This document shows, piece after piece, positions 2,836 through 18,506 of a stretch of 64,000 bases of DNA; position 1 is the first letter of the stretch; the number at the start of each line of letters is the position of its first letter. Position numbers and translations under genes: made by a program. This DNA is from Escherichia phage AV110. The notes below the pieces were generated by a model that worked only from the letters and a program-made list of their open reading frames with translations, made no database searches and was not told where the DNA came from. The stretch is from the sequence record OR352940.1; one strand, written 5' to 3'.

Positions 2836-4161
2836 TCAAAGTGCCTCCAAGTCTTTAGTGTACTCTGTCACAACATCAGTAGACTTCCAATACTCATTTT
2901 CTTCTTTCTTAGCTTTAGCTTCTTCGGCTAGTTTACGTGCTTCATCAGAAGTGATATGGAAGATGTTAAGACCTACCAGTTTATCGACATGTTCTTTATA
3001 CATTTCTATTTGTGCTAGCTCTTCAGTCAAAGCTTTACGAGTCTTGCCCTGAATCACAATTTCACCGTTGATAACTTTTTTGATGAAGTGTGCCTTAGCA
3101 AAAGCCAGTTTAAATGCTTTTTCAGATTCAAGGATTTTGTTGTCAATACGTTTCTGAACGTAAGTCTTACGGACTTCAACAAAATCTTTGATTAAGTCCA
3201 CTACGTTATCGTAGACAGCTAATTTACCCTTTTCATTAATCACTGTGATGTTTTGTGAACGACGTTCGATGAGACTAAAATCTTTCATGATTTTTTCATG
3301 ACGTAGCTCTTCATCATCAGGAAGCGAGTACTCTTTACGGAACTTCACCTTAAACCCAAAGCCGTGTTCACCGCAATCATCTTCCCATGAGATTAGACCT
3401 TTGTCTTCCAACGGGTCAAGAACCTTACTCACATACGTTTCACGGTCGAATTTATATGGGATTTCAGTTATCTGCATTTGAGTGCGAGATGTGAACTTAT
3501 ACGTTCCGTGAATCTCATAACGCCCATCAACTTCATGTACTTCACCACGGAATTCCGGGAATTCAACTTTTGGCTTAGTGACATTTTTACCTTGAAGAGC
3601 TTGTAATACAGCCTTTTTTACCGATTTAAAACTATGAGGCAGAATATTTGTTGCGTAACCGGTTGCAATACCAGAGACGCCATTCAAAAGAACCGTCGGA
3701 ATAATAGGAAGATAGAATTTTGGTGGAATGTGTTCTTTATCTTCATGAGCTGGAGCATATTCAGTATCTTTATATACGTTATAGAAATTTTTACTTACAC
3801 GAGCAAAAATATAACGAGATGCTGCAGCTTTTTGGACTGTTCTAGAACCAAAGTTGCCTTGGCCATCTAACAGTGGATAGTTGTTGTTCCATGTGTTAGC
3901 CATCAATGCACCTGCATCTTGTGCAGAAGATTCACCATGGTGATAACCTAAATCTGCAACACCGCCTGCAATTGACGCAAGTTTATGAAATTTTTCTTTA
4001 TTACCACGAGCCAAATCTAACGCGCGATGAACCACAAAACGTTGAACCGGCTTAAATCCATCAATCATGTTTGGGATCGCACGGTTTTCAACGGTGTACA
4101 TCGCATATGCTAAGGCTTCGTTATCAATAATACTTTTTAGATTACGAGAATTCAATTGCAT
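2836..4161 (-). CDS. 52: DNA topoisomerase II medium subunit gp52
   Basis: 441 aa; GyrA/ParC-like N-terminal region (GFKPVQRFVV...); size and position as T4 gene 52. Confidence 0.9.
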   Translation of the reverse strand: MQLNSRNLKSIIDNEALAYAMYTVENRAIPNMIDGFKPVQRFVVHRALDLARGNKEKFHKLASIAGGVADLGYHHGESSAQDAGALMANTWNNNYPLLDGQGNFGSRTVQKAAASRYIFARVSKNFYNVYKDTEYAPAHEDKEHIPPKFYLPIIPTVLLNGVSGIATGYATNILPHSFKSVKKAVLQALQGKNVTKPKVEFPEFRGEVHEVDGRYEIHGTYKFTSRTQMQITEIPYKFDRETYVSKVLDPLEDKGLISWEDDCGEHGFGFKVKFRKEYSLPDDEELRHEKIMKDFSLIERRSQNITVINEKGKLAVYDNVVDLIKDFVEVRKTYVQKRIDNKILESEKAFKLAFAKAHFIKKVINGEIVIQGKTRKALTEELAQIEMYKEHVDKLVGLNIFHITSDEARKLAEEAKAKKEENEYWKSTDVVTEYTKDLEAL

Positions 4162-6633: not shown

Positions 6634-7560
6634 TTATTCTGCAAATAATTCAGTAACGTCTGAAATTACTTCATAACGACATGTACGCATCTTAGCATCG
6701 CCATAGTCAACCGGGATGGATACAACATCACGTGGATGAACTTTAACCTTAACAACTTTATCTGAGCTAGAACCAAAGTGACGAATATATGATTTAGCGC
6801 AAACATGTAGACCACGGGAGCAGGTTTGTGTATCATCATCGTTAACACGAGTACGAGGCATTGAAACAACTTTACCTGGTGAGTTATCAAATGTACCGCT
6901 ATAACAATCTAAATAGTCTTTACGAACTACTTTCCACGCGTAGAAATGCCCATCTTCAGTGATTTCAATATCATTTGCAACCAAGAAGTCGAATAAACGT
7001 TGTACAGCTTTTTCGCTCGGGTTTTCTAACAGGTTTTCAAGGAACGGTAGATAGAATTTAAAGTCTTCGCCTTTTTCCATTGAATCAATAATACGGTTAA
7101 CCAGCCCTGAACGAATCTCTATACCTTGATAAAATAAACTACCACCTTCAATAACAACATTACCGTCAACAAACTTACTAATAGCTTTCTTGATGTTAAT
7201 AAGTTCGACAGCTTTACTAAGGTTTCCTGCGACCAGATTAGCTTTAATTTCTTCAAAATTTGCATGACTTGATGGAGTCGCATTGTATGCTACGCGTCCT
7301 TCAATAATTGAAATAAATTTAGATGACGCGTTCCATACGATTTCAGGACGATGGCCGCCGATAATAGGTTCATCATTTTCTGGAACTTCTTCAACTTTCG
7401 AAGTCTCATCTTCGGCTTTAAAATTCTTAACAATCTTACGAAGAGTATCTGTTGAAATGTCGAAGTAATCAGCAATTTCCCGACGGGTCCATTGACCTGA
7501 TTCAACCAGTCTGTAAGCTTCTAACTGTTCTTCTTTGGACAAGCATTTGATATTGTACAT
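6634..7560 (-). CDS. rIIB: rIIB
   Basis: 308 aa directly downstream of rIIA; size and position as T4 rIIB (312 aa). Confidence 0.85.
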   Translation of the reverse strand: MYNIKCLSKEEQLEAYRLVESGQWTRREIADYFDISTDTLRKIVKNFKAEDETSKVEEVPENDEPIIGGHRPEIVWNASSKFISIIEGRVAYNATPSSHANFEEIKANLVAGNLSKAVELINIKKAISKFVDGNVVIEGGSLFYQGIEIRSGLVNRIIDSMEKGEDFKFYLPFLENLLENPSEKAVQRLFDFLVANDIEITEDGHFYAWKVVRKDYLDCYSGTFDNSPGKVVSMPRTRVNDDDTQTCSRGLHVCAKSYIRHFGSSSDKVVKVKVHPRDVVSIPVDYGDAKMRTCRYEVISDVTELFAE

Positions 7561-13098: not shown

Positions 13099-13114
13099 AA
13101 GGGCCGAAGCCCTT
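13099..13114 (-). terminator. hairpin terminator upstream of gene 39 promoter
   Basis: AAGGGC-UUCG-GCCCUU then UUUGCUUU; overlaps MotA box. Confidence 0.45.
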
Positions 13115-13535
13115 ATTTAAATTTAATTTTCTGAAGTGCATCAATTGCAGCCAAACGCCCTTGTTCACTTTTAACTGTAATGACCACATCGCCTGATACG
13201 ATCACCGAACCATCAACAAATTCTATAGAGCCTTTTTTGAAATCGACAACTGTATCTGGTTCCGGAACTTCTTCAAAGAATTTAAATTCTGCACCATAAA
13301 TCAGAATATCACCTTGCATACTAATGATTGAACGTCCAGGTCCATCGGTTTCAGCGGCAATCATTGAAACACCATAACCAATCATCTCTTCTACAATAAA
13401 ATCTCTTGATAATAAAACTGTATGCAGAGTAGTGTTAAGACGTTTACCAGTCGTATTAAGAATTCTCAAGAAATTATCTTCCTGTCCTTTGATAATACGA
13501 TATTTCTTACCAACTTCAAAACCTTTAAAAGCCAT
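13113..13535 (-). CDS. hypothetical protein (140 aa)
   Basis: ORF downstream of gene 39; followed by UUCG hairpin terminator. Confidence 0.5.
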   Translation of the reverse strand: MAFKGFEVGKKYRIIKGQEDNFLRILNTTGKRLNTTLHTVLLSRDFIVEEMIGYGVSMIAAETDGPGRSIISMQGDILIYGAEFKFFEEVPEPDTVVDFKKGSIEFVDGSVIVSGDVVITVKSEQGRLAAIDALQKIKFK

Positions 13536-13537
13536 AA

Positions 13538-13717
13538 TTAACCCTTCTTAAGTAAGTCGTAAAAACCACCGTTCACATGTTTAGGAGCAGAAACCCGACG
13601 AGTAGACAGACGATGACATTCAGGGCAAACATCGTTTTCTCGTTCAGAAATTCTTTTAATTTTTTCATATTCATGACCACAATCTTCAGATTGACATTTA
13701 TAGTCGTATAACGGCAT
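13538..13717 (-). CDS. FmdB-like zinc-ribbon protein (59 aa)
   Basis: Hand-found [21 protein letters not shown]...CPEC (two CxxC pairs), TAATG-coupled to upstream ORF; below track cut-off. Confidence 0.5.
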   Translation of the reverse strand: MPLYDYKCQSEDCGHEYEKIKRISERENDVCPECHRLSTRRVSAPKHVNGGFYDLLKKG

Positions 13718-14130
13718 TATTGTTCCTTAAAGTGAGCTTTCAACATTTGATACAAAGACCATGCCTGGTCGTTATTTTTGATAGTAATCGTCATCACCGG
13801 AAATTCAGACAATTCATCAAGTTCTCCAGAGTCTTGCTCTTCAGACGCTTGATATGGATTTCCAACTTCGTCAAAGAACTCTGCTTCATTCGTGGAGAGC
13901 CAGATAAAGTTTTCATCAAGGATATCACCACCTGTCGCGTATCCAACCATGCCAGTAGATGTCACAATTTTAGTAGGACGATCAAGATGGTCAACATCTA
14001 ATACTTTAAATGGTTCCACGCCAAGACGTCGTGCATAAATCCCATTATCGGTGTGGTCCTTAATAAACTCTTCTTGGGCACGTTTATCTTTAAATTGGTA
14101 CCATGAGTTAACGCGGAATTTATTAGCCAT
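13717..14130 (-). CDS. hypothetical acidic protein (about 137 aa)
   Basis: Start taken at Met-7 (MANKF...) coupled to upstream stop; track lists 13717..14148. Confidence 0.5.
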
Positions 14131-14357
14131 TAGTAAGTTTCCTTCCAATAAGTTGTACCGTTTTCAGTGATTTCACGGAAGATACCGTAGATAGGCATTT
14201 CATCACCGAGTTTTTCGTAAACGTAAACCACTTCGGTGTAGCATAAAAATCCGGTCCAGTTTTTCTGTACAACAACTAAATCAGGATTAAACAGAACATC
14301 TTCAAACTCATCGATGTTTGAATCAGTAGTTACGTTTTTAATGATTTGACGTTTCAT
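14130..14357 (-). CDS. hypothetical protein (about 75 aa)
   Basis: ATG at 14357 with AGAGGAG RBS; track start 14402 lies inside the promoter. Confidence 0.45.
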
Positions 14358-14385
14358 AATATTCTCCTCTTGTTTTGATAGGTCT

Positions 14386-14414
14386 ATAGTATCATAGACC
14401 ACAGTTGTTGTACA
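14386..14414 (-). promoter_or_regulatory. early-type promoter (TGTACA-17-TACTAT)
   Basis: Upstream of ORF 14130..14357; -10 flanked by GGTCTAT/ATAGACC inverted repeat. Confidence 0.4.
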
Positions 14415-14939
14415 TCATTTTAGCAAAATAAAATCAACTTGTTCTGCCAATGAACGTCTGAACATTAATTGACAACTTCCGAGGATGAAATCAGGTGCTT
14501 CATAGACCGCGATGTAGTATCCTTTAGCTTTCAAGAGTTCAACATCCACCTGGTCATCAAACCATGCATAAACCGCGTCAACACTTTCAAATCCAAAATA
14601 GAACCCTTGAGCCCAATCTTCACTCAATTCAAATGTGTGCTCAATTCTATGGTATCTTAAGATATTTTGTTCAAGGAGTTTGTCTTCATTTACTGTAGGA
14701 CGATTAGGGACATTATAGTTGTCGCCGTGATGGTAGAAGTTACCTGAGAGTATTCCATGCTTATCAAGGAACTCCCATGTTTCTTCAGAGTTGTCGGTGC
14801 CCGACCAACCGTATGGCGAGCGAGGTTCTTTATTCCAAGAGGTTTCCCAAATTCTGACGGCTTTACCATCTTCGATAGCAATTCCTGGTAATGATTCACG
14901 TTGAGTACAAAAACTACGTTCTACGCGATAAACTAACAT
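14415..14939 (-). CDS. hypothetical protein (174 aa)
   Basis: ORF with GGAG RBS downstream of early promoter 14966-14994. Confidence 0.5.
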   Translation of the reverse strand: MLVYRVERSFCTQRESLPGIAIEDGKAVRIWETSWNKEPRSPYGWSGTDNSEETWEFLDKHGILSGNFYHHGDNYNVPNRPTVNEDKLLEQNILRYHRIEHTFELSEDWAQGFYFGFESVDAVYAWFDDQVDVELLKAKGYYIAVYEAPDFILGSCQLMFRRSLAEQVDFILLK

Positions 14940-14965: not shown

Positions 14966-14994
14966 ATAATATCAAAACCGGAGGAGAAGTAAAC
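14966..14994 (-). promoter_or_regulatory. early promoter (GTTTAC-17-TATTAT)
   Basis: Upstream of ORF 14415..14939; followed by AGACCTATCAA. Confidence 0.5.
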
Positions 14995-14998
14995 AACT

Positions 14999-15418
14999 TT
15001 ATGCAAAAGATGCTGGACAATATTTTTTGATTTGGAACTCAGGAACTACCATGAACTGTCCAGCGAAAACGATGTTATAAAGCTTAACACCATCTTCTAC
15101 CCATTGGTCCGAAATAAAGCCAGCAACTTGATTCGTTTTCCATGGAGACCCGTCAGTTGCAGCAGCAATAGTAAATTTGTGGTCTTTTACAACTAAAACA
15201 GACCTGCACAGTTTCCATTTGAACGCACGTTCTTCTGGCTCAATGAATTGGCTTTTAACGTAACCAATGTTACCATCTGCGTCACGAACTTTAACTTCGT
15301 TACGTCCAAAAACCGGATCACTCACAGAAAGAACTTCAACCAACTTCCCGGCAACTTTAGAGCGAGAAGCATCCGATACGTGTACATAATCACCAATAGA
15401 GAGATTTGCAATATTCAT
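14999..15418 (-). CDS. paralogous family protein, member A (139 aa)
   Basis: Shares C-terminal motif ISDQWVEDGxKLYNIVFxGxFxVV and N-terminal SxASRSKxAGxLVEV with adjacent ORF 15428..15883. Confidence 0.6.
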   Translation of the reverse strand: MNIANLSIGDYVHVSDASRSKVAGKLVEVLSVSDPVFGRNEVKVRDADGNIGYVKSQFIEPEERAFKWKLCRSVLVVKDHKFTIAAATDGSPWKTNQVAGFISDQWVEDGVKLYNIVFAGQFMVVPEFQIKKYCPASFA

Positions 15419-15427
15419 AATAATTCC

Positions 15428-15883
15428 TTAAGCTTTACGAGGAGACACATAGCGAGTGATTTCAGATTCTTTAACAACTCGGAAGTCACCTAAGAATACG
15501 ATATTGTATAACTTTTCACCATCTTCAACCCATTGGTCACTAATGAAGCCACACATAGTATCAGTTTTGCTTGGATAACCGTATTCATCGATGAAGTCAA
15601 ATTCTTTATCAGTCTGGAATTCAACACCTTTATAAAGAGCCCATTTGAACTGTACATTAGGTTCAGTAGAAGCAAAATGAGCGCTCACATGAGTTTCCAA
15701 GAATTTAGGACTTACGTAAGCGTACTGAGTATCCTGACGTCCAAAACTAGGAATGATTCGAACTTTAACTTCTTTAATACGTCCCATGCCATTTGTGCGA
15801 AGTCCGACAACTTCAACCAGACGACCTGCGGCTTTAGAACGGGATGCAGTTGATACACGCTTAATTTCACCAATAGTAATCAT
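15428..15883 (-). CDS. paralogous family protein, member B (about 152 aa)
   Basis: Paralogue of 14999..15418; start taken at MITIGEIK (ATG 15883) because track start lies within promoter -35. Confidence 0.6.
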   Translation of the reverse strand: MITIGEIKRVSTASRSKAAGRLVEVVGLRTNGMGRIKEVKVRIIPSFGRQDTQYAYVSPKFLETHVSAHFASTEPNVQFKWALYKGVEFQTDKEFDFIDEYGYPSKTDTMCGFISDQWVEDGEKLYNIVFLGDFRVVKESEITRYVSPRKA

Positions 15884-15913
15884 AATTTTTCTCTCTTTGT
15901 TTAAGTTGAATTC

Positions 15914-15943
15914 ATTATACTCCAACCATCCTTGGTTGTACAA
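15914..15943 (-). promoter_or_regulatory. early-type promoter (TTGTAC-18-TATAAT)
   Basis: Upstream of paralogue B; spacer AACCAAGGATGGTTGGAG shared with 16471-16500 and 58281-58309. Confidence 0.45.
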
Positions 15944-15945
15944 CA

Positions 15946-16440
15946 TTAATTTAGAATATTAACCACAGCACTACGTGGAACTACACTAAAATCACCTGCA
16001 TGAACAACGTTCAGAAGTTCAACACCGTCTTCAATCCACTGGTCAGTTACCCAGCCACTTACCGGTCCTGCGAACGGACGTCGAATTGAAACAGCTTTAC
16101 ACAACAAATCAGTAGGCTCAATAGGCTTAATCAGAGTACCGTACATACAAGCGATATCCATATCAATACAGATGTCTTTAACGGGTTCTACTTCTTCAAT
16201 CAACAGTTCAAAGTCGGTGCTTGGAAGGGCGGTAGTAGAAATTGTACCATATGAATTTTTAATTTCTAAGAATAACCAAGGGCCTTCAGCTTGTTTGATG
16301 AAGTTAACAATAGTAAAACTATTACCTTGAGTGGCACCTAAAATTTCACAAAACTTTTCATAAGCTCGCACTGAAGCACCGTACCAGTTGATTTGTTTTT
16401 CGTCTTTCAGGATGTAAGTAGCCGTAGTATTGATATTCAT
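15946..16440 (-). CDS. paralogous family protein, member C (164 aa)
   Basis: More divergent copy with same C-terminal motif (VTDQWIEDGVELLNVVHAGDFSVV); own early promoter; position of T4 dexA.1/dexA.2/motB. Confidence 0.55.
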   Translation of the reverse strand: MNINTTATYILKDEKQINWYGASVRAYEKFCEILGATQGNSFTIVNFIKQAEGPWLFLEIKNSYGTISTTALPSTDFELLIEEVEPVKDICIDMDIACMYGTLIKPIEPTDLLCKAVSIRRPFAGPVSGWVTDQWIEDGVELLNVVHAGDFSVVPRSAVVNILN

Positions 16441-16470
16441 AATGTTTTCCTGTTTGGTTAAGATAGAAAG

Positions 16471-16500
16471 ATTATACTCCAGCCATCCTTGGTTGTAAAC
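16471..16500 (-). promoter_or_regulatory. early promoter (GTTTAC-18-TATAAT)
   Basis: Upstream of paralogue C; spacer AACCAAGGATGGCTGGAG. Confidence 0.5.
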
Positions 16501-16505
16501 TGATT

Positions 16506-17183
16506 TTATCGCTGTTTTACACTTAACGGGTCAGGATTCTCAGGGACATCTTCAAGGCCAAGCGCATAACGCTGAGCATATTTTAACATCAAAATATCTT
16601 TAGCACAATCATGAATACTATCATGGGCAACGAATCCTTTTAGCGTACCCATCGGTAATGGACACATACTTAATCCTCGTGTCAACGAGTAAGCTTCGAT
16701 TGCCGTACGAATATCGCGTTGAGCCCAGAATTTAACCGGTTCTAATTTATCAGTATCAATATCTGGTTCAAGAACACCTTCATCACGATAGAGGTCACGA
16801 ATCAAATCGACCAAGATTGGGAAGTCAAAGCTCATACCACGGCACCACATCTGTGATTTCCATTGGTCAACTTTATTATCTCGGCAATAGTCTAAAAAGA
16901 TTTTAATGCCTTCAAGCGTAGTGACATCATCTTCAGACGGAGCCAGGTTTTTACGCGCTTCAGCCGATTGTTCTTTCCACCATTTCATAGTGGATTTAGC
17001 GAAAACTCGCTTCCCTTTCTGAGAAGCTAAATTAAATTTAATTCGCTTACCTCGTTGAACAAGTTCTTCAAATGATTCAACAACTTCAGGGTCGGAATTA
17101 TATGCAATAACCGCAAGGTCAATAACAGCCGCTTTTGATGTATTGCCGAATGTTTCAAAATCTATAATAACATCAGTGCTCAT
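16506..17183 (-). CDS. dexA: exonuclease A (DexA), DnaQ-like 3'-5' exonuclease
   Basis: 225 aa; exo I motif VIIDFETFG near N-terminus; size and position as T4 dexA. Confidence 0.8.
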   Translation of the reverse strand: MSTDVIIDFETFGNTSKAAVIDLAVIAYNSDPEVVESFEELVQRGKRIKFNLASQKGKRVFAKSTMKWWKEQSAEARKNLAPSEDDVTTLEGIKIFLDYCRDNKVDQWKSQMWCRGMSFDFPILVDLIRDLYRDEGVLEPDIDTDKLEPVKFWAQRDIRTAIEAYSLTRGLSMCPLPMGTLKGFVAHDSIHDCAKDILMLKYAQRYALGLEDVPENPDPLSVKQR

Positions 17184-17192
17184 AATTTTCTC

Positions 17193-18506
17193 TCAAATAA
17201 AATGGACGTCAAACCGTCCACGAGTTGTGCCGACATACAATAACTGTTTAGCTAATTCTGAATCGGCATAATGGATACACGGTGTATAAACAAAGGCAGT
17301 GTCAACAGACATACCCTGGGCCTTATGGAAGGTTGATACAGGTAGTGCCTTCACCTTAGTGAACATACGTTTAGCATCCCAGAATTCGCTCCATGGGGCT
17401 TTACCACCTTTATTCCAGAATTTATATGTTTCTGCTGTCTTAGCCAAAAACAAATTGAATTTATAAAGCTCTTCTTCAGAAGAAATAACCTTTATATCTT
17501 CGCGGATGTATTCTTCATCATCCCCATATGTTTCTACTGTAAGATTCCAGTATCGTATCATATATTCGCCTGAAACACCACGTGCTTTAACGAATGTAGA
17601 CGTTTCTACAGCATCTCGAATACGAACGAATTGCCCGTTATTGAAAAGCATTTCGGTCATATTTTTACCATCTAGCTTATATGTCTTAGTAAATGGCTCT
17701 TGTAGAACAATGACTTCGTCTTTAATAAATGGTTTTTCTGTTTCAAGAAGTTTTCGGCGAATAATTGAATTTAACTTGTCCACCGACTTATTTGTGAATG
17801 CCATCATTCGATTTTCGAAAAGGTCTTCAGGAGTTTTAACGACGTTAAAATAGTTCATCATATACGATTTAAGGTCTGTATATCCATGAACACCGTGTCC
17901 ATCAACTACTTTATCGTAAATCCATTTGCCATTACGAATATCAGTCGCAACATCAATAATTGGTGCATTGCTACGTTTAACTTCTGTAAGGTTGCATTGC
18001 ACGAAGTCTTTGTGAGTGAAGAAAGGACTTAGATACGCAGTTGATTCGCCTGGGTCTACCGGACGAATCTGGCATCGGTCGCCGATTCCAATTACTGTAC
18101 ACCATTTAGGGATACTAGCTAACATTATTTTAAACAGAGAACGGTCGCACATTGACGCTTCATCAAATAACAGTACACGACACAAGGCTAAGTCGGGAAC
18201 CTTTTTCTGTTCAAACAATACGTTTTCTTCGTATGTAGTTGGGTTGATTTTAAGAATGCTATGAATAGTCGATGCTTCTTGACCCGCAAGTTTGCTTAGA
18301 ACCTTTTTAGCAGCATGTGTAGGGGCTGCTAAAATAATACCTGATTCTCCTGAAGAAATAAGAGCTTCAACAATAAATCTAGTAAGGGTTGTTTTACCTG
18401 TACCAGCCGGTCCATTAATAGTTACATGATGTTTCTTTTCTTTAATAGCTTCCATAACAACGTTGAAGGCGTTTTTCTGGCCTTCAGTCAAATCATCAAA
18501 TGTCAT
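17193..18506 (-). CDS. dda: Dda DNA helicase (SF1)
   Basis: 437 aa; Walker A GPAGTGKTT, helicase motifs; size and position as T4 dda (439 aa). Confidence 0.9.
   Translation of the reverse strand: MTFDDLTEGQKNAFNVVMEAIKEKKHHVTINGPAGTGKTTLTRFIVEALISSGESGIILAAPTHAAKKVLSKLAGQEASTIHSILKINPTTYEENVLFEQKKVPDLALCRVLLFDEASMCDRSLFKIMLASIPKWCTVIGIGDRCQIRPVDPGESTAYLSPFFTHKDFVQCNLTEVKRSNAPIIDVATDIRNGKWIYDKVVDGHGVHGYTDLKSYMMNYFNVVKTPEDLFENRMMAFTNKSVDKLNSIIRRKLLETEKPFIKDEVIVLQEPFTKTYKLDGKNMTEMLFNNGQFVRIRDAVETSTFVKARGVSGEYMIRYWNLTVETYGDDEEYIREDIKVISSEEELYKFNLFLAKTAETYKFWNKGGKAPWSEFWDAKRMFTKVKALPVSTFHKAQGMSVDTAFVYTPCIHYADSELAKQLLYVGTTRGRFDVHFI

Follow-up and report, generated by a model that had tools for sequence, protein, structure and literature searches.

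The motB cluster of Escherichia phage AV110: three adjacent early genes with a predicted common C-terminal barrel

Previous studies of bacteriophage T4 describe MotB as an abundant early protein that binds DNA tightly, whether modified or not, and shows no sequence preference (PMC6070864, PMC7827196). It is toxic in Escherichia coli, doubles the T4 burst size with barely any effect on T4 transcripts, co-purifies with H-NS/StpA, and raises the expression of 75 host genes, about one third of them in the H-NS regulon (PMC6070864, PMC7827196). MotB and MotB.1 have a C-terminal domain in common and different N-terminal domains, one of the two probably being a duplicate of the other, and RB69 has two copies of motB, one motB.1 and one peptide of 29 residues (Patterson-West et al. 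2021, PMC7827196). Here we analyse the corresponding cluster of Escherichia phage AV110 (OR352940.1) in a window of 64,000 nucleotides, the whole stretch of DNA under study. A sequence-only reading had picked out three adjacent open reading frames (ORFs) of 139, about 152 and 164 residues as tandem paralogues in a phage early region. They prove to be minus-strand ORFs of 139, 151 and 164 residues at positions 14999–16440, and sequence comparison identifies them as the second motB, motB and motB.1, respectively, of a T4-type phage of the Mosigvirus (RB69-like) group. Earlier annotations and publications already cover the family, the C-terminal domain common to its members and the arrangement of three genes in RB69-like phages, and our identification is a rediscovery. 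Homology, domain layout, promoters, conservation and selection were computed here; DNA binding, remodelling of H-NS and the effect on fitness are carried over from the T4 papers.

Identity of the three genes

All three proteins match the Pfam family PF17613 (MotB, 'modifier of transcription') above its gathering cut-off of 25 bits. The 151-residue protein scores 127.2 bits and covers profile positions 2–157 of 162, the 139-residue protein scores 84.0 bits, and the 164-residue protein scores 36.1 bits through residues 84–159 only. In PHROGs the two shorter proteins belong to the MotB-like family 1671 and the longest to family 2333. The 151-residue protein shares 92% identity with RB69 MotB and, over the full length, 48% with T4 MotB; the 139-residue protein is 92% identical to RB69ORF010c and 90% identical to the copies in RB9 (Tequatrovirus) and pSe_SNUABM_01; and the 164-residue protein is 49% identical to RB9 MotB.1 over residues 3–162. 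At the nucleotide level the 1.6-kb stretch shares 99.3% identity with Escherichia phage mogra (Mosigvirus) and 94–95% with JS09 and numerous further genomes of Mosigvirus.

Gene order points the same way. In RB69 (AY303349) dexA is followed by motB.1, motB, RB69ORF010c ('similar to motB'), motB.2 and cef, exactly as in the window, and six further Mosigvirus loci have this order; RB69 differs in that its motB.1 is broken, whereas the window gene is intact. In T4 the order is dexA, motB.2, motB.1, motB and cef, and the second motB is absent. The position of motB.2 varies among these phages: it lies downstream of both motB copies in the window and in all Mosigvirus loci examined, and directly after dexA in T4, RB9, pSe_SNUABM_01 and the Dhakavirus loci, a local rearrangement of gene order.

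The motif on which the sequence-only reading was built is genuine, although its exact consensus, ISDQWVEDG-KLYNIVF-G-F-VV, holds for only two of the three proteins. The 139- and 151-residue proteins carry GFISDQWVEDG[VE]KLYNIVF[AL]G[QD]F[MR]VV, whereas the 164-residue protein has a diverged relative, VTDQWIEDGVELLNVVHAGDFSVV, that is identical to the 139-residue copy at 16 of 26 positions. Pairwise alignment bears out the significance of the similarity. The 139- and 151-residue proteins align over almost their whole length (BLASTP E 2e-31, 44% identity in 145 columns), and each aligns with the 164-residue protein through the C-terminal block only (E 1e-11 for the 139-residue protein, 2e-10 for the 151-residue protein). 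Comparison of the MotB and MotB.1 profiles with hhalign gives a probability of 98.7% (E 4.7e-16) and pairs MotB 82–146 with MotB.1 112–163, which is the whole C-terminal domain. The core DQW[VI]EDG occurs, in six-frame translation of the window, in these three ORFs only, with one further match that has two mismatches. An N-terminal motif, S-ASRSK-AG-LVEV, had also been noted in two of the proteins, and it is indeed confined to those of 139 and 151 residues.

The 164-residue protein has the C-terminal sequence typical of MotB.1, DPTDLLCKAV-IRRPF...GWVTDQWIEDGVELLNVVHAG. Among 37 MotB.1-type sequences, the window protein included, Pro109, Thr110, Asp111, Leu112, Leu113 and Phe123 are invariant, as are Gly129–Trp135, Glu137, Gly139, Glu141–His147 and Arg156.

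Between the paralogues, the 26 codons of the motif differ at a proportion of 0.69–0.87 of synonymous sites (pS), against 0.18–0.27 of non-synonymous sites (pN). Since the synonymous sites are near saturation and the protein has been kept, we conclude that the copies are old and that selection at the protein level maintains the motif. The same near-saturation rules out recent duplication or gene conversion as the origin of the shared motif. MotB.2 was also considered as a fourth member of the group, on account of an apparent W-F-D-DQ...ELL likeness in a multiple alignment, and was rejected when hhalign gave a probability of 0.2% for a 7-sequence MotB.2 alignment against the MotB.1 profile.

Identification of the motB start codon is complicated by the fact that the middle ORF, at 15428–15946 on the minus strand, encodes 172 residues from its first ATG and 151 residues from the ATG at 15883. 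The GenBank annotation of mogra and several relatives uses the upstream ATG, which overlaps the motB.1 stop codon. We judge this start less likely than the shorter one, because an early promoter lies inside the extension (15884–15946) and because the records of T4, RB69, JS09 and others begin MI(T/I)IGE. Two of the three genes, those for the 164- and 151-residue proteins, have strong early-type promoters of their own (Table 1), as the sequence-only reading had proposed, and the promoter and leader are themselves duplicated, with 80% identity over 64 nucleotides (15877–15940 against 16434–16497). The gene for the 139-residue protein lacks a separate promoter; it begins 9 nucleotides past the stop codon of the 151-residue gene.

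Table 1. Positions of the motB cluster, its motifs and its neighbours in the window
Feature	Position	Strand	Remarks
motB.1 orthologue, 164 residues, intact	15946..16440	-	Predicted LSm/SH3-like N-terminal barrel, disordered linker, MotB-type C-terminal barrel
MotB.1 N-terminal domain, residues 1–84	16189..16440	-	Five strands and a helix in the model; acidic, isoelectric point 4.6
Conserved short peptide of MotB.1 linker, DMDIACMYGTLIKPI	16120..16164	-	Predicted local distance difference test (pLDDT) below 50 for residues 86–106
C-terminal motif of MotB.1, GWVTDQWIEDGVELLNVVHAGDFSVV, residues 129–154	15979..16056	-	Invariant across 37 MotB.1-type sequences
motB orthologue, 151 residues	15428..15883	-	Predicted basic KOW-like N-terminal barrel, linker, C-terminal barrel
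C-terminal motif of MotB, GFISDQWVEDGEKLYNIVFLGDFRVV, residues 112–137	15473..15550	-	On model strands 104–120, 123–130 and 133–138
Second motB paralogue (RB69ORF010c type), 139 residues	14999..15418	-	Pfam MotB 84 bits; PHROG 1671, E 1.7e-52
C-terminal motif of 139-residue paralogue, GFISDQWVEDGVKLYNIVFAGQFMVV, residues 100–125	15044..15121	-	
Early-type promoter of motB.1, TTTACA-17-TATAAT	16471..16499	-	11/12 consensus matches; in the dexA–motB.1 gap
Early-type promoter of motB, TGTACA-17-TATAAT	15914..15942	-	10/12 consensus matches; upstream of the 151-residue start
dexA, exonuclease A, upstream cluster boundary	16506..17183	-	Exonuclease annotation in phage mogra and RB69
dda, upstream of cluster	17193-18506		
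motB.2 orthologue, 174 residues, neighbour	14415..14939	-	Aligns with T4 MotB.2
cef, downstream of cluster	within 14130-14402		
goF-type gene, downstream	13717-14148	-	PHROG 622
Second GoF-type gene	13113-13535	-	PHROG 622

Domain structure and charge of the proteins

AlphaFold2 models were calculated for the 151-residue protein (42-sequence alignment, mean pLDDT 84) and for the 164-residue protein (37-sequence alignment, mean pLDDT 79). Both show two β-rich domains separated by a linker of low confidence, and each has five C-terminal strands, in keeping with the conserved barrel, with its DQW[VI]EDG core, of the MotB family. In the 151-residue model the motif forms the core strands of the five-stranded C-terminal barrel. 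Taken together, the models and alignments indicate that each protein is built from two small β-barrels, and that the conserved C-terminal barrel, of ∼55–70 residues, is predicted to be common to all three. The models agree with the KOW-plus-barrel layout predicted for MotB in earlier work (PMC7827196) and with the LSm-like N-terminal domain of MotB.1 (PMC12152347).

The N-terminal domains are distinct in fold and in charge. That of the 151-residue protein is KOW-like and resembles T4 MotB residues 6–45, as in the MotB proper (Category 1) of Patterson-West 2021; its isoelectric point (pI) is 11.0 and its net charge +8, the corresponding domain of T4 MotB having a pI of 9.75. T4 MotB (162 residues, PF17613) likewise combines a KOW-like N-terminal domain containing SRSK-AG-LVEV with a C-terminal barrel containing DQWVEDG-KLYN-VF, and its gene lies in the dexA–cef early region with an early promoter of its own. 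The window protein differs in being 11 residues shorter in the linker, and its gene in having a second copy behind it, which is absent from T4. In this second copy, the 139-residue protein, the SRSK-AG loop is kept, the N-terminal domain is near-neutral and the linker is short.

The N-terminal domain of the 164-residue protein aligns with that of T4 MotB.1, which has been classed as an LSm-like fold in a family with GoF and Frd.2 (Kim et al. 2025, PMC12152347). In our model it forms the same kind of bent, five-stranded antiparallel sheet, with strands at residues 8–11, 42–49, 55–61, 67–73 and 80–83 and a helix at residues 26–37. The protein is acidic throughout (pI 4.5). Its linker carries the conserved peptide listed in Table 1, and DMDIACMYGTLIKP or close variants are found at residues 4–19 or 72–98 in other MotB.1-type proteins. 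T4-type MotB.1 differs in lacking the 23-residue linker that contains this peptide, and the window protein keeps a complete C-terminal barrel. The peptide looks like a movable docking motif.

Searches by sequence against solved structures found no match in the PDB, even at E 10, and fold searches gave generic small-barrel neighbours and matches of low template-modelling (TM) score, mostly to T4-like phage proteins. NusG/Spt5 KOW domains and Tudor/SH3-like barrels, at 10–19% identity and with no NGN domain on the phage side, resemble these proteins only in generic fold. The database names of the genes in mogra are MotB-like protein, modifier of transcription and transcriptional regulator, with similar names in RB69 and many other records. 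If these names were taken literally, the proteins would be sequence-specific regulators of phage transcription, and KOW domains are indeed present in the transcription factors NusG and Spt5. In T4, however, a motB amber mutant examined by RNA-seq shows no effect on early or middle transcripts and mild changes in only a few late genes, and the DNA binding is nonspecific (PMC6070864). The name goes back to early genetics that later work has not confirmed, and we regard such a role as very improbable.

The distribution of charge provides a further distinction. The C-terminal domain has a pI of 4.7 in MotB and 4.65 in MotB.1 and is near-neutral in the 139-residue copy. The basic charge pattern is seen in the MotB orthologue only, and neither the 139-residue protein nor MotB.1 resembles a DNA-coating protein. 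This suggests that the conserved C-terminal barrel is something other than the main DNA-binding surface. The barrel might instead be an assembly or docking module, through which the three proteins co-assemble or bind one host partner while their N-terminal domains supply the ligands, whether DNA, RNA or protein. Such a module would suit a C-terminal block that is conserved more strongly than any other part of the three proteins and has an acidic or neutral character, the MotB N-terminal domain alone being strongly basic, and a family in which very different N-terminal domains are set on a nearly invariant C-terminal domain. The footprints of MotB, which suggest cooperative coating of DNA (PMC7827196), and the partly dimeric state of T4 MotB.1 on non-reducing gels (PMC12152347) are also in its favour. 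Set against these points, AlphaFold3 gave no confident homomultimers for a T4 MotB.1 construct lacking an intact C-terminus (PMC12152347), and the C-terminal domain has been assigned to a cold-shock-like nucleic-acid-binding fold (Patterson-West et al., PMC7827196). On balance a docking function for the barrel appears doubtful.

Selection and distribution

Ratios of non-synonymous to synonymous substitution (dN/dS) were calculated by the Nei-Gojobori method at the whole-gene level, from orthologues in nine Mosigvirus genomes. The values are 0.15 for the 139-residue paralogue, 0.20 for motB and 0.14 for motB.1, compared with 0.12 for goF, 0.14 for motB.2, 0.04 for dexA and 0.03 for dda among the neighbours. 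Purifying selection therefore acts on the three genes much as it does on other non-essential early genes, and positive selection is rejected at the level of whole genes.

These values weigh against the part of the sequence-only reading in which the genes were taken as a diversifying family of host-interaction or anti-defence factors. A rapidly diversifying anti-defence or host-range family, each copy directed at a different bacterial immune system, would be at home in an early, non-essential region among genes with their own early promoters. It would also fit the one to three domain-bearing genes found per phage in the dexA–cef interval and the swapping of N-terminal domains among relatives, and silencing by H-NS is one of the ways in which the host defends itself against foreign DNA (PMC7827196). 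However, dN/dS of 0.14–0.20 is close to that of goF, the proteins fall into conserved orthologous groups, and the 139-residue protein remains 90% identical across two genera, between Mosigvirus and RB9. PADLOC and NCBIfam gave no match, and no anti-defence role is reported in the literature searched, in which two papers mention motB.1, neither in that connection, the counteraction of H-NS seen in T4 data being the sole defence-like link. The family does not qualify as diversifying, and an anti-defence function for it is, in our view, improbable. The idea of a host-interaction factor fares better: it holds for the family by way of T4 MotB, with its DNA binding and H-NS remodelling, and extends to the window proteins by analogy. 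Homologues with an assigned function, which the sequence-only reading had counted as evidence against itself, exist to the extent that an activity of MotB is published.

The survey of copy number that the same reading had proposed shows one to three intact domain-bearing genes per dexA–cef interval. Three are present in the window, mogra, RB9 and pSe_SNUABM_01; two in SP18, E33, dhabil and RB69, the last with a broken motB.1 in addition; and one in the T4 reference, again with a broken motB.1, and in Klebsiella phage AmPh_EK29. In a phage collection, 778 records contain a relative of the 139-residue protein, 207 of them at ≥80% identity and 571 below 60%, with none between. This gap indicates that the second copy is a discrete gene, present in about one quarter of MotB-bearing genomes. 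Some Tequatrovirus phages (RB9, pSe_SNUABM_01 and CrRp10) have it as well.

Beyond these phages the family appears to be narrow and largely limited to the T4 type. Searching 1.84 billion representative proteins with a profile retrieved 25 clusters only, all of small proteins (43–251 residues), and no remote relative of known function. The 15 cluster sequences retrieved have the same architecture, a KOW-like N-terminus followed by the C-terminal domain being the commonest layout. In non-T-even phages, among them AmPh_EK29 (a Marfavirus, locus 3001–3381), a KOW N-terminus like that of MotB, the linker peptide and a C-terminal domain of the MotB.1 type are encoded together in a single gene. This combined layout may be that of the ancestor of MotB and MotB.1.

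The dexA-to-cef interval is an early region of a T4-type phage, and its surroundings show some variation of their own. Between dda and dexA the window has a gap of 9 nucleotides (17184–17192), where T4 has dexA.1 and dexA.2 and other genera have one small ORF. The motB.2 orthologue has a promoter-like site of its own at 14993–14966 in the promoter scan. Two GoF-type genes lie near the cluster, on either side of gene 39.2, and one of them, at 13113–13535, has a weak match (E 0.006) to the MotB.1 family in its N-terminal half. This match fits the published idea of a distant kinship of GoF with the MotB.1 N-terminal domain and suggests that the early region is a cluster of small-barrel proteins.

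Proposed roles and the broken motB.1 annotations

The 151-residue protein is assigned the role of T4 MotB because the two share their layout and charge pattern; the proposal is by analogy with a protein to which it is 48% identical. On this analogy MotB would be made in quantity from its own early promoter, and its basic KOW-like N-terminal domain would bind DNA without sequence preference and coat host and phage DNA alike. The coat would change the placement of H-NS/StpA on the DNA, so that some H-NS-silenced genes would be derepressed and the phage yield would rise modestly. T7 gp5.5 and T4 Arn offer a functional analogy, in a possible early relief of H-NS silencing (PMC7827196). They differ in that they bind H-NS directly, whereas MotB is associated with H-NS only through DNA, and they are taken here as functional analogues, not as members of the family.

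The 139-residue protein is an ancient MotB duplicate, and its gene is transcribed together with motB and probably coupled to it in translation as well. From its shorter linker and near-neutral N-terminal barrel we infer that it is likely to be a sub-functionalised partner or variant of MotB. MotB.1 is predicted to join an acidic LSm/SH3-like N-terminal barrel and the conserved linker peptide to the common C-terminal barrel. As a whole, this account, comprising the identities of motB.1, motB and the second motB together with the roles proposed for them, is in our judgement very likely to be the correct explanation of the cluster.

Comparison of motB.1 genes shows that two annotations, those of the T4 reference and of RB69, are frameshifted within the C-terminal motif. 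In the T4 reference (AF158101.6 / NC_000866.4, about 7263–7344) there is an extra G, ATTGGAAG in place of the ATTGAAG of relatives. It falls inside the DQWIEDG codons of motB.1 and gives rise to the annotated ORF of 119 residues, the remainder of the motif being readable in the +1 frame. Eleven other T4 records, together with RB55 and RB59, match 81 nucleotides of the 82-nucleotide query at 98.8%, consistent with the absence of the extra G, and would encode 143 residues with an entire C-terminal domain; in the alignment of strain 147 the absence of the G is seen directly. The full-length MotB.1 form, of 143 residues, is found on 256 contigs. The 119-residue ORF is thus probably wrong, either through a frameshift artefact or through a mutation of the strain. 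In RB69 (AY303349, locus 2447–2943) two single-T insertions divide motB.1 into an ORF of 132 residues and the 29-residue RB69ORF012c, which is the out-of-frame end of motB.1 and is the 'Category 3' entry of Patterson-West 2021. Judged from the one RB69 record compared, this split may be a sequencing error or a strain mutation.

Kim et al. (2025) obtained their motB.1 expression plasmids by gene synthesis, with T4 coordinates according to NC_000866.4, and report a monomer of 13.8 kDa (PMC12152347). These coordinates and this mass imply that the plasmids probably express a truncated MotB.1, which may bear on the negative results obtained with them. The docking idea can be extended in this light: the C-terminal barrel would join basic KOW, neutral KOW and acidic LSm-like proteins into a chromatin-like coat made by the phage, or onto one host partner, and the published lack of a MotB.1 phenotype would then be due in part to the frameshifted 119-residue T4 ORF. 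We think this extended form decidedly unlikely.

As a discovery, the recognition of the three genes carries little weight. Its practical value is for work on the early proteins of T4, and its interest lies mainly in the roles of the 139-residue protein and MotB.1 and in the problems of the reference annotations; intact motB.1 genes such as that of the window are better templates for functional work on MotB.1. For the family itself, the paralogues are old and conserved, and selection on them is purifying and not diversifying, which implies that each probably has a retained job of its own.

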